Shown here piece after piece: positions 26,279 through 64,000 of a stretch of 64,000 nt of DNA. Below the pieces are notes generated by a model, which saw only the letters and a list, made by a program, of their open reading frames with translations, was not told where the DNA came from and searched no databases. The position numbers and the translations under genes are program-made. Each line of letters begins with the position of its first letter. Position 1 is the first letter of the stretch. Origin of the DNA: a virus; IMG/VR virus record IMGVR_UViG_3300028840_005911, positions 32,001 to 96,000 of that record; one strand, given 5' to 3'.

Positions 26279-29200
26279 CAGTTTTGTCCATATCCCTTAG
26301 ACTTCATGGAAGTCACTTCGGTTTGCAGCTCTTTCAGCTTGTCTGTGATGTCTTCTCCCTTACCCTGCATCGCTGCCACACTGGCGCCGACTGCCCATAC
26401 AAACTTCTGGTGAGACTCTGCGTAGGATCCGAGAAGACCAAGTAGCTTTTCGTTTTGTGCCTCTCTTCCGCCTGGTGTAGCAACTGGGCCACGAGCTCCC
26501 ACTTCCCTACCCAAAGCGCCACGTATCCTGCGGAGCTCGGTGAAAGTGAGACCACCCTCCATCGCCTCTTTTATCATCTTCTGGGTTTCCGAGCTCGAGC
26601 TCCGAAGAACGTCGTACCCCAGTGTTCTGGAGATCTCCCGCATCCTCTTCTTGAGTTGCTGGGCGCTCATCCCTGAGGTAGATGAGAGACCTTCGAGCAT
26701 GGCCATGCCCACAGTGTGTCCGGCCACGGCACCGCCGGTTCTTCGCAGGGCGTCCATGGCCTCTGTGTCGCCAGATATCTCAGCGGCCAGGGCCTGGGCT
26801 CTATCTTGGGTCCTTTCTCCTGTTGGGTCCTCTGTGTAGGCCTCAAGAAGCTGCCGGTATTTGGTGGTCAACCGTGTGCTTAGAGGCCCTGCTCCCCTCT
26901 TGGTCAACGCAGCAAGCTCTTTTCCGGCCAGGGTCTTCCTTTCCTCCTGAGCCTCCATCGTGGTCTGGTATCTCTTTATGTCATCTACCAGATTGGTCTT
27001 CGAAGCCAGCTTAGATAACGCAGCAGGATTCCTAGCTTTGAGCGCGGCGATCTGGTTGTATATCTTTCGAGCTTTCGGGTCATTCTTCTTGAAGACGGCC
27101 TCGATGAACTTCTTACCGCCCTCTGAGTTCTCATCCGCCCTATCCCGGATCCACTGACTGAGCGAGTGACCCCAATCAGAGTTCTCGAGGGCATTGAGCA
27201 GATCCTTGGAGCTGACCATGTCCTCGTCGAACATCTCTCTGTCTATGGCACCAGTAACCCCGTATGCCCCGGTAAATGCTTTTGTAAGGGCCTCCCCCAC
27301 CCCAGCCTTTCCGGTCACTATCTCGTAGATTCCCTGACCTGCGGTCCAGGCAACATGGGGGGCAAATGCCGCCATAGACAGGCTAGCAATGGTCCTGGCT
27401 GCTGTCCCTACTACAGTGGGAGGTTCTTTAAGCATCTCTGCTGCTTCGTCCGCCAGCGTATTTTTGTACTCCAGAACCTTTGCGGTGTCCTGAAGATCCA
27501 GTGCGCCTAGACCAGCATCCTGTGCCCATCCCTGCAAGTTGGCGGACAGGAAGCTGTTATCCCACCCGGACTCTTTCTGGGCGAGAGCCAGCATGTCCAT
27601 CTGATTCTCAGCACTAAAAACAGACTTTCCTCCGGCCTTCATCAGACTCCTGGCAGCTTCGGCATACTCGGGGTCTTTCATCAGCTCTTCGTTGAGCATG
27701 GCGGCGTAGGCCCCTCTATTCCCTCTGGACTCCTCTCTCAGCTTGGCTAGCCTTCTGGCATTTGTGGTATTGCTCATGAACTTCTTCATAGCGAGAGATA
27801 GCTTGTTGAGTTTCGGCTGGGCTTCTTCTCTGGATATGTTGTATCCCAGCCGCTCTAGTGTAGGTTCTTGAGCTCTCCTGGACACCCCTCCAGCCTCAAA
27901 ACCTCCAAGGGCCCCAAGCCGTGAATAGGGGTCGGCGTTCTCCATACCCAGGGCCGATGCAGCTAATCCCCCAGTAAACCTTGCTGTTCCCCAAAAGAGG
28001 CCAGCACCTTCACTACTGTATGACCGGACAAACCTCTCACCTATTGGGGTTCCTCTAGTCCCGCCCCCTATCCGCTGAGCCATACTGGCCATCTCAGCAG
28101 CGCCCATCATCCCGCCACGGCCACCACGCATGATCTCCATGCGCTCACCCTGGGTAACCACTGTGCCGCCGGTCCTCCCGAAGAATTGGTTCACCAGGTC
28201 GTCCATATCCTCCCCGATCCTGGTGACCGCTGTGGATGCAACGTCTTCTATTGGTGCGAGAGTCTGTTCCCAGGCATGTTCCAGGGCCCGCTTCATACCC
28301 TCGAAGCTGCGGTACTTCTTCCTATCCAGATCTCTTGCGGCATCCTCAATAGCTTGTCTCTGCCTCCGCAGACGCTGGTCCCTGATCCTGGGCATCTCGT
28401 CTCCGAGTCTGCGCCAGATATCAGCTTCTCGAGCCTCAACCCCCATGAGCTTTTGAATGAAGAGATTCTGGATATCTTCTCCGGCTTCACCGTATCCGGC
28501 CCGCTCCATGACCGACCGGACAGCCTGGCCCACTGACTCCATCCCACCCTCGGCCATCATCCTCTGGCCTATCTGACCTTGCTGCACGGCAAAAGAGGCG
28601 GCCCCTCCTCTGGTACCTATTCTGGATCTGCCCCGGGCTTGTAGCTGACCAATATCAAGTTGACCAGCTGTGAATCTCTGCATGGCTCTTGGGTCTATCT
28701 TGCCGGTGAACCTTCCTTCTTCGAATTCACCAAGGCCGGCAACCATCAGGCGCCCCATACCACTTTGAGCAAACTGGGCGGCAGTTCCGGTAAGCTGTTG
28801 AGCCACCATCTGCTGCCCTGCCGCTCCCCCAACACCTCCGGTCATCTCTCTGATATCCCGAGACGTCAGAACACCGGCCTGTCCTGCGGCCTGAATGTTC
28901 ATGAAGGCTTCTTGGCCCATCATAGCCCCGGCCCCCAGTGGGCCTCCCATCCGATGCGCCATCGTTGCCCCAGCCTGCATCGCCCCCATAAGCTGTGGGG
29001 CCGCTGGGCCGGCTGCCCTCATAGCCCCGGCCATACCCATGATATCGTTGGCCCGCCACAAGCCCATCCTCTGAGCCTGACCGAACAGGGGCATAGCCTC
29101 TTCTATGGTAGAGCCCATGACATCGGAGATGTTCCGGACCTGGTTGATGATCTCCCTGAACCGGGTCTTGAATTGCTGAGCATTCATAACCCCGGAGAGC

Positions 29201-29901
29201 ATCCCGGAGCGTTGGGCAACGTCTGTGAGGTTAATTGCCTCTTTCATGGAGAGCATCACGTCCTCACTGGCAAACTCCCTGAGGATCCCAGTGATCTCCC
29301 TAATCTGTCCCCGGGACATCTGCCCGCCCGGCCTAACCCCGGCCTGCCCATAGAACGGCCCCTGCCGACCCATGATGTCACCGACCTGAGAGACATTTTG
29401 CGCACCTTGGTAGATAGATTCTCCGATTGTCTGGATACCCATCCCAACAGCGGCGTAAGGGAGAGCAGTCATGGCTGCCGCCCCGATGCCCCCACCAAGG
29501 GCCCCGAGCCCTCCCATGAGTCCTCGCTGAGCAAAAGCCCCACCAATGTGTCCAATCGTGCCAAGAACCCCCGCCCCTCGGGCAGCTCCGCTACCGTAGC
29601 CAAAGGCTCGAGCTCCCATGGTCCACGGATCTAAGATACCGGCTGGGCCTCCCATGAGACCCCCGGCAATGGACGCCGCACCCGCCAGCCCGGGCAGGGC
29701 CATTCCAACACCACCCACCATAGCCCCGGCCATCCCTGCGGAGGGCTCGGACTGGGGGAATGGGTTCTGCATCTGGGAGACCTGCATCTGTGGGCCGGTA
29801 CCGTACATGTTGCTGATCTGCTGAGCATGACCAGCATAGTTGGAAAACATTACATGTTGTCCGCCAACGGCCCCAGAGATCTGATAGGAGGTCATTACCA
29901 T
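26278..29901 (-). CDS. Tape measure protein
   Basis: 1207 aa, Gly/Ala/Met-rich, helical, precedes baseplate genes. Confidence 0.75.
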   Translation of the reverse strand: MVMTSYQISGAVGGQHVMFSNYAGHAQQISNMYGTGPQMQVSQMQNPFPQSEPSAGMAGAMVGGVGMALPGLAGAASIAGGLMGGPAGILDPWTMGARAFGYGSGAARGAGVLGTIGHIGGAFAQRGLMGGLGALGGGIGAAAMTALPYAAVGMGIQTIGESIYQGAQNVSQVGDIMGRQGPFYGQAGVRPGGQMSRGQIREITGILREFASEDVMLSMKEAINLTDVAQRSGMLSGVMNAQQFKTRFREIINQVRNISDVMGSTIEEAMPLFGQAQRMGLWRANDIMGMAGAMRAAGPAAPQLMGAMQAGATMAHRMGGPLGAGAMMGQEAFMNIQAAGQAGVLTSRDIREMTGGVGGAAGQQMVAQQLTGTAAQFAQSGMGRLMVAGLGEFEEGRFTGKIDPRAMQRFTAGQLDIGQLQARGRSRIGTRGGAASFAVQQGQIGQRMMAEGGMESVGQAVRSVMERAGYGEAGEDIQNLFIQKLMGVEAREADIWRRLGDEMPRIRDQRLRRQRQAIEDAARDLDRKKYRSFEGMKRALEHAWEQTLAPIEDVASTAVTRIGEDMDDLVNQFFGRTGGTVVTQGERMEIMRGGRGGMMGAAEMASMAQRIGGGTRGTPIGERFVRSYSSEGAGLFWGTARFTGGLAASALGMENADPYSRLGALGGFEAGGVSRRAQEPTLERLGYNISREEAQPKLNKLSLAMKKFMSNTTNARRLAKLREESRGNRGAYAAMLNEELMKDPEYAEAARSLMKAGGKSVFSAENQMDMLALAQKESGWDNSFLSANLQGWAQDAGLGALDLQDTAKVLEYKNTLADEAAEMLKEPPTVVGTAARTIASLSMAAFAPHVAWTAGQGIYEIVTGKAGVGEALTKAFTGAYGVTGAIDREMFDEDMVSSKDLLNALENSDWGHSLSQWIRDRADENSEGGKKFIEAVFKKNDPKARKIYNQIAALKARNPAALSKLASKTNLVDDIKRYQTTMEAQEERKTLAGKELAALTKRGAGPLSTRLTTKYRQLLEAYTEDPTGERTQDRAQALAAEISGDTEAMDALRRTGGAVAGHTVGMAMLEGLSSTSGMSAQQLKKRMREISRTLGYDVLRSSSSETQKMIKEAMEGGLTFTELRRIRGALGREVGARGPVATPGGREAQNEKLLGLLGSYAESHQKFVWAVGASVAAMQGKGEDITDKLKELQTEVTSMKSKGYGQN

Positions 29902-31064: not shown

Positions 31065-32361
31065 AGGACGGACATCGAAGCCAGTCGTCTGGATGGTTGA
31101 TGTAGAGGACAATGCCGTTCACACCACCTGGGGCCAGCTCGATGGTAAGATGCAAGGTACCACACAGACCTTCAAGGCGGTCAACGTCGGCAAGTCCAAC
31201 GAGAAGTCACCTCAGCAGGTCGCCCAGGAGTTCGCCGACCGGCAGGTCCTGAAGAAGACCAGGGAAGGGTTCAAGGAGTTCGACCACGAGACCGGAGAGC
31301 TCATCGGTGAATCTGCGGACTCCATCGAGTCGTTTATCGAGCTGCCGCCCAACATGCGGCTGTACAAGCCACAGAACTCGCTGCCAAAGTACCTCATCAA
31401 CCTGGCCGAGAAGGGCAAGGCCTGGTTCGTCAGGAAGCGGAACGGCGAGATGATGGTGGCTTCGAAAGGCGAGGACGGACACTTCAGGTTCTACTCGTCC
31501 AAGCTCCTCCCAAGCCACAAGGATGAGGCTGACGAAGGTATCCCATGGTCTGACCGCTTCCCGCACCTCCTGGGTGTTCTCAAGCGGTATGACATACCGG
31601 ACAGATCTGTACTTGCCGGCGAGCTCGTGTCAGGAAGATACGAAGATGACCTGTACCGGGTCGGCAGCGTCATGAAGAGCCTGACCCCTCGGGCTCTCGA
31701 GCTCCAACAGAAGGAAGGGCCCCTGTGGTACTGCATCTGGGACGTCATCTTCTGGAGCGGTAAGAACCTGCTGGAGACTATGACCTACCGGGAACGTCTC
31801 CAGGTACTGAAGCGTGCGATAGCTACCCCCTTCCCGGACTACCTCACCCTCCCAGAAAGGGAGGCACCTGCCGCAGATGAATCTGTCATCGACGCGATGA
31901 AGGAGCAGGCAAAAGACAAGGGCTGGGAAGGCTACGTGGTTGTAGACCCAGAGGTCCCCTACGGAGAGAAGGGTGTCAGCTTCCACGGCAAAGCGGAGCG
32001 GCCCAAGTACTGCGGTAAGCTCAAACCGACCCTCGAGGCGGATTTCATCGCCATGTGGGACCCCGACAACGATATCGGGACCTGGGGCAAGGGTAAGAAG
32101 TCCGGCGGTGTTGGCGCGCTGTTCCTCTATCTCCTAGACGAGGAGACCGGAGAGAACGTCTACATCTCCAAGTGCGGCGGAGGTCTGACAGACGAGGACG
32201 TCTTCAAGCTCGCCGATCCTTCTCTGTACCCGCTCGTGGTCGAGGTGGAGTTTGCTGCCTGGACACCCAAGGGCTCCATCCAGTTCCCGGAACTCAAGAG
32301 GGTTCGTCACGATAAGGATCCTGAGGATTGCACTCTGTCCCAGAGACCGGAGGTGGAATGA
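31039..32361 (+). CDS. lig: ATP-dependent DNA ligase with N-terminal WGR-like domain
   Basis: Motif I KRNG, III GEL, IIIa IWDV, IV EGYVV, V KLKP, OB-fold FPELKRVRHDK; TWGQLDG N-terminus. Confidence 0.85.
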   Translation: MMREFRQTKGRTSKPVVWMVDVEDNAVHTTWGQLDGKMQGTTQTFKAVNVGKSNEKSPQQVAQEFADRQVLKKTREGFKEFDHETGELIGESADSIESFIELPPNMRLYKPQNSLPKYLINLAEKGKAWFVRKRNGEMMVASKGEDGHFRFYSSKLLPSHKDEADEGIPWSDRFPHLLGVLKRYDIPDRSVLAGELVSGRYEDDLYRVGSVMKSLTPRALELQQKEGPLWYCIWDVIFWSGKNLLETMTYRERLQVLKRAIATPFPDYLTLPEREAPAADESVIDAMKEQAKDKGWEGYVVVDPEVPYGEKGVSFHGKAERPKYCGKLKPTLEADFIAMWDPDNDIGTWGKGKKSGGVGALFLYLLDEETGENVYISKCGGGLTDEDVFKLADPSLYPLVVEVEFAAWTPKGSIQFPELKRVRHDKDPEDCTLSQRPEVE

Positions 32362-49497: not shown

Positions 49498-49574
49498 CTA
49501 TGAACAGAAGGGCAGTGCAGCAAAACCGGGAAGGTAGGGCGCTGCAAAAGGTTACGCACCCAAAGGAGGATCAA

Positions 49575-50393
49575 ATGAAAGACTTCAGAGTGAAGGTGAG
49601 AGCCTACAATAATAGGTTGCTCGAGAGGCGGGAAAAGTTAGGACTATCTCAAAAGGCCTTGGCAGCGCAGGCTGGGATACCTGCCGGAGAGTACAACAAG
49701 TACGAGAATATGCGGAAGACGGCGTGGAACCCAAAAAAGAATAACTGGAGGCCGGATGCGGTTAAACTGGCTGCATTCCATGATGTATCCGAGTTCGATC
49801 TATTTCCCGAATCTCTCAAGATGATCGAAGCGCGTCCTGTGGAGATGGAGGTAGATGCCTGCGAGGTAGAGGCCTTGATGGGAGCCTCCATACCAACCCC
49901 ACATAAAGCTCTCGAATCTTCCGACCTGAACACAAAGGTCAGAGAAGTCATCTCTACACTCACCCCAAGAGAAGAAAAGGTAATCAGGGCACATTTCGGG
50001 ATAGGAGAGGATGAGCGGACATTTGAGGAGATCGGTGAAGAATTCGGTGTTGGCAGAAACAGAATACGTCAGATAGAGTGCAAAGCCCTTCGTAAACTAC
50101 GTCACCCACACCGGGCTAAACGTCTGATAGATTACTGTGAAGAAGGACCAGCGCCAAAGCCCAAAGAACCAAAACCTAGACCTCCTACTCCAAAAGAGCT
50201 GGCTCTAGAAAAGTTTCACGCATACGGACACAAAGAACGTAGTATGGGGTGGGCCTATCACTTCCGCTTCAGAAACTTCTATTTTCTGAAGTGCCGAACG
50301 TGCGGACGCAGGGCTTATGCAAAACGGAGAAATGGAAGGATGATGATCTTTGGGGAAGCCCTCAACGTCAAATGTGGTAAGTACCTTCCGTAA
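49575..50393 (+). CDS. XRE-HTH + sigma70 region-4 fusion
   Basis: REKLGLSQKALAAQAGI; LTPREEKVIRAHFGIGEDERTFEEIGEEFGVGRNRIRQIECKALRKLRHP. Confidence 0.8.
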   Translation: MKDFRVKVRAYNNRLLERREKLGLSQKALAAQAGIPAGEYNKYENMRKTAWNPKKNNWRPDAVKLAAFHDVSEFDLFPESLKMIEARPVEMEVDACEVEALMGASIPTPHKALESSDLNTKVREVISTLTPREEKVIRAHFGIGEDERTFEEIGEEFGVGRNRIRQIECKALRKLRHPHRAKRLIDYCEEGPAPKPKEPKPRPPTPKELALEKFHAYGHKERSMGWAYHFRFRNFYFLKCRTCGRRAYAKRRNGRMMIFGEALNVKCGKYLP

Positions 50394-50395
50394 TC

Positions 50396-50474
50396 GGTGG
50401 ATAGCTTGAGAGTTTGTTGGTGGGTCGATTGGACTAGCGAACGGTTAGATGCTGGTTCGCTGGGAAGAGAGCCT
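50396..50474 (+). repeat. G-NNN period-4 tract (18/20 units, one 3-nt unit)
   Basis: ggtg gata gctt gaga gttt gttg gtgg gtc gatt ggac tagc gaac ggtt agat gctg gttc gctg ggaa gaga gcct. Confidence 0.75.
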
Positions 50475-50490: not shown

Positions 50491-50766
50491 TCAGAGCTGC
50501 GCCTTGAGGGTCGGTGAGGGCCGGAAGCCGACGGTCTTGGAGGCCTTGACCTTGATGATCTCGCCGGTCTGCGGATTGCGGCCCTTGCGGGCCTTGCGCT
50601 TGCGCAGATTGAAGACACCGAAGCCGGCGTAGCTGAAGCGGCCTTCCTTCTTCACCGTCTTGGTGATGGTGCTGAAGACGCTGTCCACGATATCGGTCGC
50701 GGCCTTGGTCGTCATCTCGTACCCCGCCGTCTTCTTGATCTGCTCGATGAATTCCTTCTTGGTCAT
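50491..50766 (-). CDS. hup: Histone-like DNA-binding protein HU
   Basis: MTKKE, GFGVF, RKARKGRNPQTGEII, VGFRPSPTLK. Confidence 0.93.
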   Translation of the reverse strand: MTKKEFIEQIKKTAGYEMTTKAATDIVDSVFSTITKTVKKEGRFSYAGFGVFNLRKRKARKGRNPQTGEIIKVKASKTVGFRPSPTLKAQL

Positions 50767-54196: not shown

Positions 54197-54952
54197 ATGG
54201 GTAAGATGCACGAACTGCTGGCAGTCGAGTCAGACCGCGAGGCGGTCTTCAAGAAGGTCGTCACCGAGGCCGGCGATACGTTCCGTAAACGCTCCGACCA
54301 CTTCCTCGGGCACCACAAGACGCTCGAGATGAAGGAAGAGGGCAAGGAGATGGCAGAGGCCGCTGCCGAAGACCACAAGGCCATGGTCACGACTGTCGGC
54401 AAGAAGCTCGACTACGTCTCCAACCCGGTCGTCACATACCTGGACGCGGTCCTGCAGAAGGAATGCACCAACCAGGTGGCGAAAGCCGATCTCGTTCTTC
54501 CGGACGGCACCGTGCTCGGCAAAGACCTGCCGGCCACCTTCTTGCTAGGGCTCGAGTCCAAGCTCAAGTTCCTCCGTCAGATGTACGAGAACATCCCGAC
54601 CTTGTCCCCTGGGACAGAGTGGGTCGCAGATGATCAGATGGGCGAAGGGGTCTACAAGTCCAAGCATCTCGAGACCAAGGCCAAGACGGAGACGACTGTC
54701 GAACACAAGGTCATCGTCGAAGCCACCGAGCACCACCCGGCCCAGATCGGCGAGGCATCCATCACCGAGGTCGTCGGTGTCTTCAAGACCAAGCACTGGA
54801 GCGGGATGATCTCTCCTGCCCGGAAGTCGGAGCTCCTGGGACGGTTGGACGTACTCATGCAGGCCGCCAAGCAAGCAAGGATGAGGGCCAACTCAGCGGA
54901 CACCATCGACAGGAAGATCGGCAAGGAGCTGGTGGACTACATCAACGCATAG
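54197..54952 (+). CDS. Conserved helical protein (recalled as DUF7873-like, unverified)
   Basis: K.HELLAVE, LPATFLLGLE, IPTL, HPAQ, WSGMISP, AAKQARMRAN. Confidence 0.65.
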   Translation: MGKMHELLAVESDREAVFKKVVTEAGDTFRKRSDHFLGHHKTLEMKEEGKEMAEAAAEDHKAMVTTVGKKLDYVSNPVVTYLDAVLQKECTNQVAKADLVLPDGTVLGKDLPATFLLGLESKLKFLRQMYENIPTLSPGTEWVADDQMGEGVYKSKHLETKAKTETTVEHKVIVEATEHHPAQIGEASITEVVGVFKTKHWSGMISPARKSELLGRLDVLMQAAKQARMRANSADTIDRKIGKELVDYINA

Positions 54953-55111
54953 GAGAACAGAGGTTTGACAAGTGGGTCAGCATTGGTGTTCCTGAAGCGG
55001 AGTCCCGGTTTGACACCCGGAACAAGGCCCGCAGACAGGGGTACTGAGCTTCAGAGTGAGCGTCAGCTTATCGAACCCACAGCGTCAATAGCCGTAATAC
55101 AACCCTGATGA

Positions 55112-55244
55112 GGATCTTCTGGCATGAACCACAATCACCGTGGTCGCAGGTTCAAGTCCTGCCATCCCCTCCAACCTATGGGGATGTAGCTCAGTGGTAA
55201 GAGCGACGGGTCGTTGTTGTAACGGTTCTTGGGTAGATGATTCC
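55112..55244 (+). ncRNA. Circularly permuted tRNA-like RNA (YrlA/Y-RNA-like)
   Basis: T arm GCAGG-TTCAAGT-CCTGC, then CATCCCC-TCCA-ACCTAT-GGGGATG, then D arm GCTC-AGTGGTAA-GAGC, closed by a long imperfect stem. Confidence 0.7.
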
Positions 55245-55328
55245 AAGGGTGGCGGCGCTGGGTGACTGGGAGACGATGTGTATCTATGGAGATTTGGCAC
55301 GTCAATGTCTTCCAGTCACTCCATCATT

Positions 55329-55373
55329 AGGGCCGGGAGGCCGCAAATAGCCGGCCTCCCGGCCCTCTCTTTT
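55329..55373 (+). terminator. Hairpin terminator
   Basis: AGGGCCGGGAGGCCG...CGGCCTCCCGGCCCT followed by CTCTTTT. Confidence 0.75.
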
Positions 55374-55482
55374 GAGGAGATTTAATGGGCGATCCAATGT
55401 TCGGGTACATGGTAGGCTCACTGATCGTTATCGTGCTCGTGGTTGTGATCTTCTCCTGTACTCCAGATAGGAGGAGGAAACG

Positions 55483-55776
55483 ATGAGAGAACCAATAGAC
55501 TACGACGGATACATGTGGGATCGAGACCCAGAGGCCGTAGAGGAACACAAAGAGCTCGAGCCCGCACTGGAGGTACTCGACGCCTTCATCTCGGACTGGG
55601 TCGAGCCGTGCTACAATTTCCTGGACTTCCAACGAGAGGCTCTGGTAACAATCGAAGCCTACATCAAATTCCTCGAGGGCCCAAACATGGCAGAAGGCGA
55701 TCTGAAGGCACTCAGGGAGAGGTTCCGAAATGAGCGAGAAAGAAGCCAAGAAGAGAGAGCTCCTGAACAGGGCTGA
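55483..55776 (+). CDS. Hypothetical protein
   Basis: GGAGG RBS. Confidence 0.6.
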   Translation: MREPIDYDGYMWDRDPEAVEEHKELEPALEVLDAFISDWVEPCYNFLDFQREALVTIEAYIKFLEGPNMAEGDLKALRERFRNERERSQEERAPEQG

Positions 55777-55930
55777 GAATACCCTAACGGAGCTCATGGA
55801 TGTTGTCGAGAAGGACAGCAAGAAGATCCTCACGATGGATACCATCAACGGGGTCCGCAAGCTCCGGACATATCTCGTCGGCGGACATTACACGCCGTTT
55901 CTTGGCATAAAAGATCGAACAGGCCAGTAG
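55730..55930 (+). CDS. Hypothetical protein
   Basis: GAGG RBS; stop lies inside tRNA 5' end. Confidence 0.55.
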   Translation: MSEKEAKKRELLNRAENTLTELMDVVEKDSKKILTMDTINGVRKLRTYLVGGHYTPFLGIKDRTGQ

Positions 55931-56001
55931 CTCAATTGGTAGAGCACCCGCAATCTGAAACATGCGGGAGGTTTGGGGTTCAAGTCCTTGCTGGCCTACC
56001 A
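55921..56001 (+). tRNA. Atypical tRNA, possibly Phe(GAA), with enlarged anticodon arm
   Basis: AGGCCAG/CTGGCCT acceptor, ACCA end, D arm, TTCAAGT loop; 22-nt anticodon arm; three G-U pairs in T stem. Confidence 0.7.
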
Positions 56002-56643: not shown

Positions 56644-57027
56644 ATGTTCGAAGAGCTGACCTTCAAGAAAGAGGAAGTCCTCAATAGGCTGAAGATCAAT
56701 CGCGAGGAGCATCTGAAGATCGTACGCGAAGCCCAGGAGGGTTACCGGGAGCAGTACGAGAAGCTCCTGGTCAAGACCCTCGATGATCTCCGGTCCGGGA
56801 AAGAGGTTCCTAACCACGTAGGTCTGACAGTCCCGTCGAACCACGTGGATGATTATGACCGTGCTATCGAGATGCTCGAGATGTGCACCGAGAAAGAGAT
56901 CATCCTCGACGAGAACCAGTTCCAGGAGCTCATGCGTAACAAGTGGAACTGGATGAGCGGGTTCCTGGTCAGCAACGCTGGTTACAGCGCCACTGCCCAC
57001 AACATCACCACGACAGCCGACGTGTAA
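56644..57027 (+). CDS. Hypothetical protein
   Basis: GAGGAG RBS before MFEELT. Confidence 0.7.
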   Translation: MFEELTFKKEEVLNRLKINREEHLKIVREAQEGYREQYEKLLVKTLDDLRSGKEVPNHVGLTVPSNHVDDYDRAIEMLEMCTEKEIILDENQFQELMRNKWNWMSGFLVSNAGYSATAHNITTTADV

Positions 57028-57054
57028 AATACTGAAATCATTCGGTTATAAGAA
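57025..57054 (+). promoter_or_regulatory. Phage consensus promoter
   Basis: TAAAAT-N14-GTTATAAGAA. Confidence 0.75.
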
Positions 57055-57175
57055 CTTCGAGGAGAAGTTTACACACCTGGTCCCCTCACTCCCCTCCGAG
57101 GGGACCAAACTCCTACACCTTGGGCCTGCCGGCAGGTATCCCTCCCCCTCCTGCCGGCAGGCCCCTTCAAAAACT

Positions 57176-57235
57176 GGATGTTAGGTGGAACTGCCGTGCG
57201 CATGTCCGGGAGTCCGTAGGAATGGGTAGGTGAGG
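57176..57235 (+). repeat. G-NNN period-4 tract (13/15)
   Basis: ggat gtta ggtg gaac tgcc gtgc gcat gtcc ggga gtcc gtag gaat gggt aggt gagg. Confidence 0.7.
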
Positions 57236-57236
57236 T

Positions 57237-57265
57237 AAGAAGGGGAGCCCTGTTCCTCTTCTTTT
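57237..57265 (+). terminator. Hairpin terminator
   Basis: AAGAAGGGGAGC-CCT-GTTCCTCTTCTTTT. Confidence 0.7.
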
Positions 57266-57271
57266 AGCCCA

Positions 57272-58409: not shown

Positions 58410-58639
58410 GCGCGTGGGTCATCGTCTGCGGGACTGGCGCCTTATACCCTATAGGGTCAGGTGGAGGGAAGGCCGCCTACATCCACAAAGAGGTCGCCGA
58501 GGATGTAATGATGGCCATCGCTGATCACGATAAGGCCTACGTCAAAGGTCGCGGAGGTCTTCACCTCGAAGAAATAACTGCAGAGGCCGGCCTGTTCAAG
58601 CAGCTAGGCCTCAATCTTGTCACGCAGGAGAAAGAGTAA
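58397..58639 (+). CDS. Hypothetical protein
   Basis: GGAGG RBS. Confidence 0.6.
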   Translation: MERVSAWVIVCGTGALYPIGSGGGKAAYIHKEVAEDVMMAIADHDKAYVKGRGGLHLEEITAEAGLFKQLGLNLVTQEKE

Positions 58640-58881
58640 TGGCCTACGTAGTCGGACTTCTCACAGATGAGGAGATGGAGATTCTCGAAGAGCGCGGATG
58701 GGATTTCGAGGAACCTCCCGCAGAGCTCAAGCTGGGGAGGTGTCCCCCGGGAAAGGTCCAGAAGATGGTCTGGGTCGACAGTGATATGTTCGAGATCATC
58801 GGCCCCTGGGAAGACAGGTCGTTCAGTGACGGTCCTCCCTACGATGCCGCAACTGCTACGGGGATGTACGACCGGTACTAA
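58639..58881 (+). CDS. Hypothetical acidic protein
   Basis: TAATG overlap. Confidence 0.6.
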   Translation: MAYVVGLLTDEEMEILEERGWDFEEPPAELKLGRCPPGKVQKMVWVDSDMFEIIGPWEDRSFSDGPPYDAATATGMYDRY

Positions 58882-58900: not shown

Positions 58901-59040
58901 GATAGATTGAATGAGTTACTGATAGTTTGCGAGGGAGTTGGGAAGGACGGAGTCTGGAAAGCAGTGAGGAAAGGGCGGAAGGTTGTTCGATCTCACGAGG
59001 GATAGGCAGCCAGTGGGCCTGTGGGGAGGAGCGAACGGAA
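58901..59040 (+). repeat. G-NNN period-4 tract (31/35)
   Basis: gata gatt gaat gagt tact gata gttt gcga ggga gttg ggaa ggac ... gagc gaac ggaa. Confidence 0.85.
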
Positions 59041-60554: not shown

Positions 60555-61261
60555 GTCGCACCAAAATACCATTTGCCGATGAAGTGTGGAACCCAATCAC
60601 CGGTTGTACAAAGATCAGCCCAGGATGCCAACGTTGCTATGCGGAGAACATGGCCCATCGTATCGCCGGGCGATGGCCCCAAGCTGGCTACAGCAAGGGT
60701 GACCCGTTCGGAATCACCTACCACTGGGATAAGCTGCAGGAGCCGTTCAAGTGGAAGACGGAAAGGAGGGTATTCGTCTGTTCGATGGGCGATTTCTTTC
60801 ATCCGCACATACCGGACAGCTACCGAGACGTTGTTCTGTCAATAGTACAGGCTCGGCCCCACATCACCTTCATCTTCATGACCAAAAGAGCAGAGGAGGC
60901 ATACAGGTATTTCCGGAAGGGGACCCCATACAATGTGTGGATAGGAGCATCCGTAGAAAACCAGGTGATGGTCGAAGAAAGGACAGAGTGGATAATCCGG
61001 ATACCGAGCCTGGTCAGATTCGTGAATGTCGAACCCATACTCGGCCCTGTTGACTTGGCGAGGTACCTACCGCACCTCAGTTGGGTCATTGCCGGAACGG
61101 AGACCGGAAAACACAAACGTGAGGCGGACACGAACTGGCTACGAGCTACCCGCGACCAATGTAGGTCTTGGGACGTGCCATTCTTCTTGATGCAGGCGGG
61201 GGAGAACAACCATTTGGACGGTAAGCTGCACAGACAGTTACCGATAGGAGAAATATCATGA
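60551..61261 (+). CDS. DUF5131 family (Gp37/Gp68, radical-SAM-like)
   Basis: WNPITGCTKISPGCQRCYA, FVCSMGDFFH, TKR, WIGASVENQ, EPILG, WVIAGTETG. Confidence 0.9.
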   Translation: MSRTKIPFADEVWNPITGCTKISPGCQRCYAENMAHRIAGRWPQAGYSKGDPFGITYHWDKLQEPFKWKTERRVFVCSMGDFFHPHIPDSYRDVVLSIVQARPHITFIFMTKRAEEAYRYFRKGTPYNVWIGASVENQVMVEERTEWIIRIPSLVRFVNVEPILGPVDLARYLPHLSWVIAGTETGKHKREADTNWLRATRDQCRSWDVPFFLMQAGENNHLDGKLHRQLPIGEIS

Positions 61262-61611
61262 GCAAAGAGCTATACAACCAGCTATTGAAAATGATGTTGT
61301 TGGCCGATGTCCGGAACCCCATGTCTGCGACAGATCAGGTGGACTGGATCATAGAGATACTGGACGCGCTCTTGAACAGAACCAATGTGCAGTATATGGA
61401 TTTGGAAGACGGCCTTACGTTCTTTGAAGACAGGTCAACATACCATTTGACAACAATGTGCATCAACGAGGTGTACAGAGTGTACGTCTTGGAGGAGTTT
61501 GGTGGCGAGTTCGCCCTTATCACACCCAAACTCCTTCCGGACCATATCAAAGAAAAGATCCTGGATGTTCTGAAGGACTTCATTTCGAAGTGCGCCTCAG
61601 AAGGGACTTGA
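61258..61611 (+). CDS. Hypothetical protein
   Basis: ATGA overlap, AGGAG RBS. Confidence 0.6.
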   Translation: MSKELYNQLLKMMLLADVRNPMSATDQVDWIIEILDALLNRTNVQYMDLEDGLTFFEDRSTYHLTTMCINEVYRVYVLEEFGGEFALITPKLLPDHIKEKILDVLKDFISKCASEGT

Positions 61612-61701
61612 GTGACGGTTCGTACGGTCGGCTGTATGGTCGGGAGCGCGTCTGGATAGTGTGGGGTTTGTGGGACGGCCCGCAGGGATGTCGGAACGGT
61701 G
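61610..61701 (+). repeat. G-NNN period-4 tract (21/23)
   Basis: gagt gacg gttc gtac ggtc ggct gtat ggtc ggga gcgc gtct ggat agtg tggg gttt gtgg gacg gccc gcag ggat gtcg gaac ggtg. Confidence 0.85.
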
Positions 61702-61746: not shown

Positions 61747-61777
61747 GAAAATTTGAAGGTGTTTTTCGGTATAAGAA
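61747..61777 (+). promoter_or_regulatory. Phage consensus promoter
   Basis: GAAAAT-N15-GGTATAAGAA. Confidence 0.8.
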
Positions 61778-61779
61778 TT

Positions 61780-62117
61780 GTGAGGAAAAGGGACGCTTTT
61801 TCCTTGTGTCGAGAAGGTCACCGGTAGGCGCCCACCGACACCTGAATATCCGCTACCGGGTGAAACTTGAGAAGTTAGAGTGCGCATTCTCAAGTTTCAT
61901 GGAATGGAGACGTGTTCGTGACGTCCCTGCACTCATGGTTTGGGAAACCAGGGGATGGTGATGGGATTAGTCCCCGGCTGGTAACAGCGCAGCTGTCGGG
62001 AAGGCGCCGCCAGGGATGGCACCCTGGCCGTTCGGGAGCTAGATCAGTTTTGGGCTATGAAGCAGCTGCCCCGAATCTGATCCGGTACCAAGAAGAGGGT
62101 ATCCCGCCTCTCTTCTT
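61780..62117 (+). ncRNA. Candidate structured ncRNA (about 340 nt)
   Basis: Promoter-to-terminator unit with several hairpins including 13-bp TGAAACTTGAGAA/TTCTCAAGTTTCA; no RBS-supported ORF. Confidence 0.55.
62090..62117 (+). terminator. Hairpin terminator
   Basis: AAGAAGAGGGT-ATCCC-GCCTCTCTTCTT. Confidence 0.65.
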
Positions 62118-62127
62118 ACCTATTTAG

Positions 62128-62204: not shown

Positions 62205-62393
62205 ATGTTCATCAAGGTTCTGACCATGCTGCCGACCAGGTGGCAGATCGTAGTCTTGAAGTGGATGCTCAGGACTGCGGAGAAGATCTCCGATGCTCAG
62301 CGGAGCGACGGGGAGTATCATCTGTCAACAGAACTCGATAGTGCGCGGGTCAGCTTCACAAGGAAGATCCGCGAGCTCGAGGAAAGGAGATAA
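62205..62393 (+). CDS. Small hypothetical protein
   Basis: AAGGAGG RBS before MFIKV. Confidence 0.65.
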   Translation: MFIKVLTMLPTRWQIVVLKWMLRTAEKISDAQRSDGEYHLSTELDSARVSFTRKIRELEERR

Positions 62394-62396
62394 GTC

Positions 62397-62540
62397 ATGG
62401 GACTGTTTCTGTTCGTAGTCGCGGTCGGCGCGGCGATATCGTTTCTCGGGGTTGTGATCGCCTTCGCGATGAACCCGCAGGGCCAAATCGAGGAGTTCAA
62501 GAAAGGCTATCGCGGCGAGTACACCAGAAAGGATGACTAA
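62397..62540 (+). CDS. Small membrane protein (47 aa), not in ORF track
   Basis: AAGGAG RBS; MGLFLFVVAVGAAISFLGVVIAFAMNPQG... Confidence 0.6.
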   Translation: MGLFLFVVAVGAAISFLGVVIAFAMNPQGQIEEFKKGYRGEYTRKDD

Positions 62541-62541
62541 T

Positions 62542-62557
62542 CCAACAGGTCTGTTGG
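62542..62557. promoter_or_regulatory. Palindrome CCAACAG-GT-CTGTTGG
   Basis: Perfect 7-bp arms; one of four copies. Confidence 0.6.
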
Positions 62558-62562
62558 ACACT

Positions 62563-62678
62563 GATTGGCTGGGAGTACGAGGGGTATATGGGATGGTAGT
62601 GAGATCTGACGTGTGAGCGGATGTCGTCTGGCTCGTACGGAGGGTTGGTCGGGAACGCGGACGTGGGCGAGAATGAAT
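62563..62678 (+). repeat. G-NNN period-4 tract (25/29)
   Basis: gatt ggct ggga gtac gagg ggta tatg ggat ggta gtga gatc ... gtgg gcga gaat gaat. Confidence 0.85.
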
Positions 62679-62698: not shown

Positions 62699-62724
62699 GG
62701 AGGAGGGCTATATGCCCTCTTCTT
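62699..62724 (+). terminator. Hairpin terminator
   Basis: GGAGGAGGGC-TATAT-GCCCTCTTCTT. Confidence 0.7.
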
Positions 62725-62745
62725 ACATGTATACTATATATAAGT

Positions 62746-62791
62746 CCAACAGGGCTGTTGTAAATTACTTACCGCGATTCTGGTATAAGAG
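62746..62791 (+). promoter_or_regulatory. Operator CCAACAG-GG-CTGTTGT abutting consensus promoter
   Basis: Palindrome 62746-62761; TAAATT-N15-GGTATAAGAG. Confidence 0.75.
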
Positions 62792-62912
62792 ATCTATGGG
62801 AGCGTGTTTCGCTCCTTCGCATTGAGCTGGTCCTGGAGTAGGTAACGGGTAACCGTGTGGCGCGCGACATGTCTACTCCAGGACCGCAAGACATTATCCC
62901 GGCCTTCGGCCG

Positions 62913-63160
62913 GTTTGATTGTGTTGTGGGTGGAATGTCGGGAGTATCGGACGCTTGAACGAATGTGGGAGAGTAAATCAGACAGGGGAGCAGGTTGATC
63001 GAAGAGAGGCAAGGGCGGTCGCCGGTATGAGTGTTCGCGGGTCTGGTAGCGAGAGGGTACGTTTGTCCGTGGTGCGGAATCATGGGGCGTTTGTCAAAAG
63101 GAAGGTACGAGCGTGAGTGGGAACATGCGTCTGCACGGTGGCCCGAGCGAAAGCTCGAGA
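62913..63160 (+). repeat. G-NNN period-4 tract (53/62, unbroken phase)
   Basis: gttt gatt gtgt tgtg ggtg gaat gtcg ggag ... gccc gagc gaaa gctc gaga. Confidence 0.9.
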
Positions 63161-63185
63161 AGAGGATACCCCCTATCCTCTTCTT
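63158..63185 (+). terminator. Hairpin terminator
   Basis: AGAAGAGGATA-CCCCC-TATCCTCTTCTT. Confidence 0.75.
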
Positions 63186-63190
63186 ACCTG

Positions 63191-63263: not shown

Positions 63264-63773
63264 ATGGAGCCCAAGAAGAAACCAAGAAGAAAGTTTAGAA
63301 GCCCGTACAAGTGTTATCGAGAGCTTGCCATCGCAGTGGTCGGGTCCCGTGACGGTAAATACCCGCACAACGTTCGCGGGAAAGACATCAAGAACGCTGT
63401 ACTTGCTGTGATGATGGAGCTCAACCTAAAACTGCGTGTCATTCTCAGGCTCCGATTCGGGATCGGAACCAAGAAGCTGACCCTCAAAGAAGTCGGAGCA
63501 ATATTTGGGGTAGGCGCAGAGCAAATCCGCAGGCTGGAAGCCAGAGGGCTAAGGGTCATGAGAAAGCACTGGCGCATTCTAGTGGACCCCTCGAACGTTC
63601 GACATCTCTGCTACGATGAACCCGACTTGGAAGAGATGATAAAGAGATGCGGAGACATGCCTCGAGCTGTATCCCACCCCGTTCTGCGGAAAACCCACCG
63701 AAGAAAATTCTCGGATGGCACTGAGTCGGTATATGTAGAGTATACCAAGATGGACAGTGACAGATATATCTGA
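63264..63773 (+). CDS. Sigma70 region-4-only HTH protein
   Basis: LRVILRLRFGIGTKKLTLKEVGAIFGVGAEQIRRLEARGLRVMR. Confidence 0.8.
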   Translation: MEPKKKPRRKFRSPYKCYRELAIAVVGSRDGKYPHNVRGKDIKNAVLAVMMELNLKLRVILRLRFGIGTKKLTLKEVGAIFGVGAEQIRRLEARGLRVMRKHWRILVDPSNVRHLCYDEPDLEEMIKRCGDMPRAVSHPVLRKTHRRKFSDGTESVYVEYTKMDSDRYI

Positions 63774-63957: not shown

Positions 63958-64000
63958 GGGCTGAACAACGCGGAGCTGGCCGCTGAATCCAGCAATGATT

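Follow-up and report, generated by a model that had tools for sequence, protein, structure and literature searches.

Phage-encoded ribonucleoproteins in which a solo RAMP protein reads an RNA made of short tandem repeats were described in 2026 under the name VIPR. In these systems, the protein Vipr (~20 kDa) is accompanied by vrRNAs of 9-16 YNNGG repeats with a conserved 3' tail and polymerizes with one protomer per repeat, such that GGY is sequestered and NN is exposed; NN then pairs with double-stranded DNA, every third target base being skipped, and competing phages and satellites are silenced (bioRxiv 10.64898/2026.04.26.720920, 10.64898/2026.04.26.720927). Seven types are known, with the variants NNNGG, YNNNG and NNNNG, all pentanucleotide, and their accessory genes often encode winged-helix or helix-turn-helix (HTH) DNA binders. 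With VIPR, a new principle for programming nucleic-acid recognition was described, one that may be ancestral to CRISPR, and all described members use five-base units. Here, we consider a 64,000-nt stretch of viral DNA, referred to below as the window (positions 32,001 to 96,000 of the 192,446-bp IMG/VR virus record IMGVR_UViG_3300028840_005911), which carries on its + strand, at 62913-63160, a tract in which G recurs at every fourth base. We argue that this tract probably supplies the RNA of a VIPR-like ribonucleoprotein whose repeat unit has four bases. A tetranucleotide unit is not mentioned in the VIPR papers (10.64898/2026.04.26.720920,.720927, 10.64898/2026.10.15.759431), nor is a natural winged-helix fusion in the discovery paper, and a later survey of 376 million intergenic regions, which reported periodicity bands of 5, 18 and 60-79 nt with outliers at 10, 8 and 7, does not mention period 4 (10.64898/2026.10.21.760802). 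For Class 1 CRISPR filaments, the VIPR literature states that the thumb periodically disrupts the bound RNA, giving a fixed register.

The period-4 G tract and its predicted transcription unit

Read as 62 consecutive tetramers, the 248 nt of the tract present G in the first position in 53 cases, and the other three phases hold 14, 17 and 18 G. G makes up 0.263 of the off-phase positions, and at this frequency a count of at least 53 in 62 has a binomial probability of 2.7e-22, or ~4e-16 after correction for all starts, phases and strands of the 192-kb genome. A maximal-segment scan found a single phase across 62909-63160 (54/63 G), and there is thus no indel in the register. Autocorrelation of G peaks at lags 4, 8 and 12; when the vrRNA region of the VIPR-bearing phage SUSP1 was used as a control, the lags were 5 and 10, not 4. 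The first-pass annotation of this DNA had reported the same count with no indel and had called the tract the longest of its kind. Both statements hold, the remaining tracts measuring 52-156 nt. The variable NNN positions are near random, if somewhat poor in C, and show no residual similarity either within or between tracts, whereas G is kept in phase at 89% (209/234 when summed over all tracts). Conservation of the register alone, with NNN left free, is what selection against indels and for G would predict, and the sequence pattern thus supports the selection against indels that the annotation had proposed.

The alternative of chance, base composition or a decayed tetranucleotide microsatellite can appeal to the G-richness of the region and to nothing more, and we regard it as negligible. 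The probability given above (P ~3e-22) speaks against it, as does the finding of only 0-1 tracts in shuffled sequences, and a decaying microsatellite would be expected to lose all four positions equally rather than to retain the G and no trace of similarity in the NNN.

Two other candidate explanations were considered and rejected. Recent duplication between tracts would have left off-phase similarity, and none is seen. Quadruplet decoding or hidden coding does not agree with the stop codons present in all + frames, and the sole tRNA-like gene, with its 12-nt anticodon loop, cannot account for GNNN.

The tract lies in a unit that looks, from its sequence, like a dedicated non-coding gene. The unit has its own predicted promoter and its own intrinsic terminator, directly after which comes the promoter of the next gene, and it contains no open reading frame with a Shine-Dalgarno site like those of real genes, in line with the annotation's claim of a dedicated non-coding RNA (ncRNA) gene. 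The strong 5' hairpins, the GAGC-GAAA-GCTC tetraloop and the terminator that had been claimed were all located in the flanks (Table 1). The claim of a consensus promoter at about 62761 stands in part: a promoter-like element is present there, and its type recurs 11 times, but it is not a sigma-70 consensus and was missed by a consensus scan. The minimum free energy (MFE) of the whole unit is -154.9 kcal/mol (z -2.2 relative to shuffles), and that of the tract itself equals the shuffles (z ~0), which makes the tract neither specially structured nor specially unstructured. Rfam gave no match for the unit at either gathering or permissive thresholds, and antisense matches of the tract elsewhere in the genome reach 13-15 nt at the longest exact match, which is the chance level.

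This tract is the longest of seven period-4 G tracts of 13-63 units, all on the + strand, that are found within 18 kb in a + strand cluster of small genes (~48 to 64.6 kb), with phage-type genes around the locus. Within the cluster, nearly every gene or gene pair comes with a separate promoter and a separate intrinsic terminator. The promoters belong to a family, GTAAAAT-N17/18-GGTATAAGAA, of which 11 copies are found between 48419 and 63213 (+), each directly after a terminator. When a uniform threshold was applied, six tracts were found in the 18-kb cluster, none in the remaining 174 kb on either strand, and 0-1 in shuffles. A second putative dedicated ncRNA in the cluster carries a shorter tract at 57176-57227 (12/13 G), and its folding z is -3.7. 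The terminator hairpins that follow the tracts are alike (RAGAGG...CCTCTTCTT), and no separate conserved tail or pseudoknot was identified after the tracts. Direct repeats between 47 and 64 kb are limited to the promoter and terminator families, with no repeats of CRISPR type.

The periodicity could also be read at the level of DNA, as a strand-specific lattice for a replication or recombination protein on a displaced G-rich strand, comparable to the DnaA-trio. Strand-specific G periodicity would indeed be present in single-stranded DNA too, and a G-rich non-template strand favors R-loops. DnaA-trio elements have a period of 3. We consider this reading very improbable, as the tracts exactly fill the space that runs from a stop codon or from 5' hairpins to a terminator, along the direction of transcription, as seven copies stand in one transcription cluster and as the tracts are associated with an RNA-binding fold.

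A candidate partner protein and its distant homologues

About 10 kb upstream of the tract, in the same cluster, lies a gene for a 418-aa protein that we consider to be the candidate partner. The protein itself gave no hit in Pfam, PHROG or PADLOC. An exhaustive HMMER search collected relatives amounting to 88 cluster representatives, and a profile of 39 sequences matched, weakly, PadR-type winged helices in the N-terminal part (E 8e-4) and Csm5 in the C-terminal half (E 0.05). AlphaFold modeling from the 39-sequence alignment gave a mean predicted local distance difference test (pLDDT) score of 85, and the best Foldseek matches of the model in the PDB are all Cas7-family RAMPs (Csm3, type VII Cas7 and Cas7-11; E 2e-6 to 6e-5). 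Among viral models, the best matches are solo RAMP proteins of ~200 aa (E 3e-8), together with PadR regulators for the N-terminus. The glycine-rich motif S332-P333-x-R335-G336...G340 is invariant in the family and is likely the G-loop; the model also shows a long beta-hairpin at residues 270-293, a candidate for the thumb.

When the RAMP domain (residues 145-385) was predicted as a homotrimer, the interaction prediction score from aligned errors (ipSAE) was 0.60, as compared to 0.00 for the best control, although resemblance to Cas7 filaments of known structure, rather than independent inference, may lie behind this score. In calibration, 20 of 30 proteins whose structures were solved as pairs attained this ipSAE, as did 1 of 23 that were solved as single chains. 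Contacts agree to at least 85% among the three runs, with a partner pLDDT of at least 79. As the predicted interface uses two different faces, the trimer would correspond to a segment of an open-ended polymer. Scanning of cluster proteins with Pfam and PHROGs revealed no Cas family, and the 24 cluster proteins scanned included no further candidate family for RNA binding; the neighbors identified were sigma-70 region 4/HTH proteins, a deaminase, HU, DUF7873 and DUF5131.

To place the co-occurrence of tract and protein in a wider frame, genomic context was compared for six other homologue lineages (L138, L134, L129, L127, L136 and L137). It should be noted that only distant lineages entered this comparison, with tracts that are non-homologous to those of this phage, since INPHARED, IMG/VR, JGI metagenomes and GTDB genomes yielded no retrievable close relative of the phage. 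Where tracts are found at homologue loci, they lie on the strand of the gene and in intergenic gaps. In L138 (29% identity; integrase on the contig), tracts of 30/32 and 32/36 G occupy gaps on both sides of the gene region, each then followed by a terminator, the second of these long tracts lying in the 3' untranslated region (UTR) of the homologue gene itself, and a further 13/15 tract is found just upstream of the start codon. In L134 (30% identity; a 111-kb phage contig), tracts of 15/17, 11/11 and 14/14 stand in three successive 3' gaps, and L129 (32% identity) has two borderline tracts. Five control loci that lack the gene for this protein, including 50 kb of phage SUSP1 and loci reached via the neighboring DUF7873 gene, which belong to other phage types, contained no period-4 tracts.

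A different arrangement was observed in L136, where 1.5 kb of non-coding DNA downstream of the RAMP homologue (L136:2694-4212) holds an array of eight hairpins, without a period-4 tract. The hairpins have variable stems and a near-identical loop (GGCCGTGATGGT), are spaced by 85-210 nt and are accompanied by more degenerate copies. The array may be an alternative form of RNA used with this protein family.

Comparison with described systems and weighing of the readings

The reading of the tract as the RNA of a VIPR-like ribonucleoprotein draws on the RAMP fold, on the modeled polymer, on co-occurrence across lineages and on the published mechanism of a related kind. According to this proposal, the unit would be transcribed from its own promoter and would end at its own terminator, and the 418-aa protein would form a head-to-tail polymer on the RNA, with one protomer for each GNNN unit. 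Each protomer would sequester the invariant G, in a manner comparable to the flipping or holding of fixed bases by the thumb and G-loop in Cas7 and Vipr, and the three variable bases would thereby be exposed. The exposed triplets might read a nucleic-acid target in a gapped fashion, as in VIPR, or might form a sequence-neutral scaffold. From the 3' UTRs, the shorter tracts would be released as similar, 3'-end-derived RNAs or would serve as such in place, and the protein would contain its own winged helix, with no need for an accessory gene to supply one. The annotation had suggested guides or a filament scaffold, and this fits with the RAMP protein in the cluster, the predicted polymer, the tracts at homologue loci and the VIPR precedent. 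That the triplets guide target recognition is less certain than the ribonucleoprotein as such.

Several features are shared with VIPR, and a mode of action like that of VIPR seems the most likely one for the (GNNN)n system. In both, a phage encodes a solo RAMP-fold protein that is accompanied by neither a CRISPR array nor further cas genes. The RNAs, located between genes and on the same strand as the protein gene, consist of very short tandem units with constant, G-containing positions and hypervariable positions in alternation, and the protein forms a head-to-tail polymer, which is here predicted. The absence of a self-target under skips of 0-3 nt also agrees with VIPR. Winged-helix DNA-binding modules occur in some VIPR systems as separate vap genes, whereas here such a module is fused to the partner, which is 418 aa long as compared to ~195 aa and is closest in fold to Csm3/Cmr4. 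A predicted head-to-tail polymer is likewise shared with Class 1 CRISPR effectors, where Csm3, Cmr4, type VII Cas7 or Cas7-11 assemble on CRISPR RNA. There, however, the register is of 6 nt rather than 4, whereas here there is no repeat-spacer array between 47 and 64 kb, there are no companion cas genes (Cas10/Cas5/Cas6/Cas11) among the scanned neighbors, the periodic base is written in the RNA sequence itself and the system is phage-encoded.

The proposal has some weaknesses that need to be considered, and the following observations weigh against it. The unit has 4 nt (G+NNN) instead of the 5 of VIPR (GGY+NN, NNNGG, YNNNG, NNNNG), the tracts hold 13-63 units instead of 9-16, the terminator hairpin is the only shared 3' element identified, where VIPR has a conserved pseudoknotted 3' tail, and the tracts are spread over 14 kb, mostly in mRNA 3' UTRs, rather than forming separate small genes. 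In hhalign comparisons of the 39-sequence family profile with SUSP1 Vipr and with a 28-sequence alignment of its relatives, the probability was at most 0.2%, a comparison that covers type II relatives only, in a fold whose members are known to diverge past sequence recognition. As the repeat is not a pentanucleotide and as no sequence link to type II Vipr was found, we do not file the system under a described VIPR type. At L127, L136 and L137, no tract above threshold was found in the available DNA, and shared ancestry is possible for those lineages in which tract and protein are found together, such that co-occurrence is no proof of partnership. Target searches were negative as well. In the phage's own genome, with skips of 0-3 nt allowed, the best matches reached 20-23 of 30 positions, equal to shuffled controls. 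Searches of 1.3 Mb of fetched loci, of INPHARED and, by three exact pattern scans, of IMG/VR yielded no target either; the relevant host and competitor sequences probably lie outside these collections. Finally, every tract ends 0-22 nt from an intrinsic terminator, and five of the seven lie between a stop codon and a terminator, in mRNA 3' UTRs.

The main rival reading builds on this placement. It holds that a multimeric RNA-binding protein, be it the RAMP protein or another, coats the tract just upstream of each terminator and thereby governs termination, read-through or the stability of mRNA 3' ends, the 62-unit RNA acting as a titrating sponge and no guide function being involved; the protein-RNA lattice is thus kept. 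The stop-tract-terminator order seen also in L138 and the uniformly negative target searches fit this reading, and precedents exist in TRAP on the trp leader and in CsrB-type sponges that titrate their protein. TRAP is likewise a multimer that reads a short motif at fixed spacing with free sequence between, just upstream of an intrinsic terminator, yet it is a closed ring of unrelated fold that reads 11 (G/U)AG repeats at 5-6-nt spacing, whereas here a single G recurs every 4 nt over up to 62 units and the candidate reader has a RAMP fold. Moreover, each downstream gene has its own promoter, so that control of read-through is not obviously needed, the L134 tracts lie 80-100 nt upstream of terminators, and fully variable NNN together with a RAMP partner fit published guide systems better. 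We consider a purely cis-regulatory role to be unlikely, while retaining it as the first alternative to be borne in mind.

It may also be that the tracts are real and selected but are read by another factor, such as RNA polymerase itself or an RNA-binding protein of host or phage origin, and that co-occurrence with the RAMP protein reflects shared descent. Three of the seven homologue loci, indeed, lack tracts, and the tract-bearing lineages also share the arrangement of one gene per promoter-terminator unit. Nonetheless, the two long tracts of L138 directly flank the RAMP gene, an unusual RNA feature has been kept among homologues that are just 29-32% identical, and the scan of cluster proteins offered no other RNA-binding candidate, such that we hold this reading to be quite improbable.

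Within the preferred reading of a VIPR-like ribonucleoprotein, a more specific and more tentative proposal, which we hold to be possible but somewhat short of probable, is that the locus represents a second, separately evolved noncontiguous guide code. In this code, a Cas7-like RAMP that carries a winged helix would polymerize on (GNNN)n and hold the G, words of 3 nt would be matched to a gapped target in DNA or RNA, filaments would extend to 62 protomers, and both dedicated genes and the 3' UTRs of early mRNAs would supply guides. If true, repeat codes read by RAMPs would be able to evolve in both period and word length, with words of 2 nt in VIPR, 3 nt here and 5 nt in CRISPR. More generally, a four-base unit read by a Cas7-like protein with no detectable sequence relation to type II Vipr would fall between VIPR and the backbones of Class 1 CRISPR, would widen the design space, with three programmable bases per protomer, and would mean that guide-like RNAs can hide in mRNA 3' UTRs, outside the usual reach of repeat finders.

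Feature coordinates and further observations

The coordinates of the features are collected in Table 1. Promoter, terminator and hairpin assignments are predictions made from the sequence.

Table 1. Coordinates of the tracts, the elements of the ncRNA units, the candidate partner gene and the gaps next to DUF7873 genes. Positions refer to the window unless a locus is named.
Feature	Position	Strand	Remarks
G-NNN tract in two phases, 3' UTR of HTH/sigma-region-4 gene 49500-50393	50396-50474	+	then terminator
Candidate partner, 418 aa	51436-52692	+	PadR-like winged helix ~20-130; Cas7/Csm3-like RAMP domain ~147-382
Second putative dedicated ncRNA	57059-57268	+	predicted promoter 57024-57052, two strong 5' hairpins, tract, terminator; no gene
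G-NNN tract, 31/35 G, 3' UTR of gene 58639-58881	58901-59040	+	abuts terminator
G-NNN tract, 21/23 G	61610-61701	+	begins at stop codon of gene 61258-61611; abuts terminator
G-NNN tract, 25/29 G, 3' UTR of small-gene pair 62205-62540	62563-62678	+	then terminator 62700-62727
Palindrome CCAACAGGGCTGTTG, operator-like	62746-62760		overlaps -35 region of the ncRNA unit's promoter
Predicted promoter of ncRNA unit	62760-62789	+	-35-like GTAAAT 62760-62765, 18-nt spacer, G-TATAAG (-10 TATAAG 62784-62789); sequence only
5' structured domain, three hairpins	62798-62913	+	62798-62815; 62829-62885 (13-bp outer stem); 62899-62913 (CCGGCC-UUC-GGCCGG)
(GNNN)62 tract	62913-63160	+	53/62 G, one phase, NNN non-repetitive
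GAGC-GAAA-GCTC tetraloop hairpin	63145-63156	+	in register within last tract units
Intrinsic terminator	63157-63187	+	11-bp stem AGAAGAGGATA/TATCCTCTTCT, loop CCCCC, U-rich tail UUCUU; terminator family D4
Further tract across window end	63997-64000 in window	+	window-equivalent 63997-64036 and 64035-64190, 46/49 G, one phase shift
Gaps after DUF7873 gene	L121:10756-11177; L123:10765-11253; L125:10783-11223		equivalent gap in window 54952-55483

The cluster contains two genes for sigma-70 region 4 proteins, at 49500-50393 (also HTH) and at 63264-63773. Four related palindromes of 14-16 bp are found at 62543, 62747, 63198 (CAACAGnnCTGTTG) and 62134 (CCAACACCTCTGTTGG); three of them overlap the spacer or the -35 region of cluster promoters, and one comes after a stop codon. 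Because of this overlap, the three palindromes are operator-like candidate sites for a dimeric regulator. The HU/IHF-type gene at 50491-50766 (-) (Pfam Bac_DNA_binding, E 2e-27) is the sole minus-strand gene inside the + strand cluster and converges on the terminator of the first G-NNN tract.

A third gene-less unit of ~340 nt, at 61780-62118 (+), is rich in hairpins and has a promoter at 61769 and a terminator at 62090-62118; it contains no G-NNN tract and gave no Rfam match at the gathering threshold. The tRNA-like gene at 55921-55998 (+), with an anticodon loop of sequence AATCTGAAACAT and an encoded CCA, scored 50.8 bits with the Rfam tRNA model and was not called by ARAGORN.

In phage SUSP1 (L139, accession KT454805), the VIPR locus at 27500-29560 (-) is recognizable from sequence by its 195-aa and 146-aa genes, which are flanked by runs of YNNGG (29170-29229 and 27890-27949); PADLOC has no model for either protein. 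The DUF7873 gene, when found in unrelated phages, is always followed by a gap of 420-490 nt without a called gene (Table 1).
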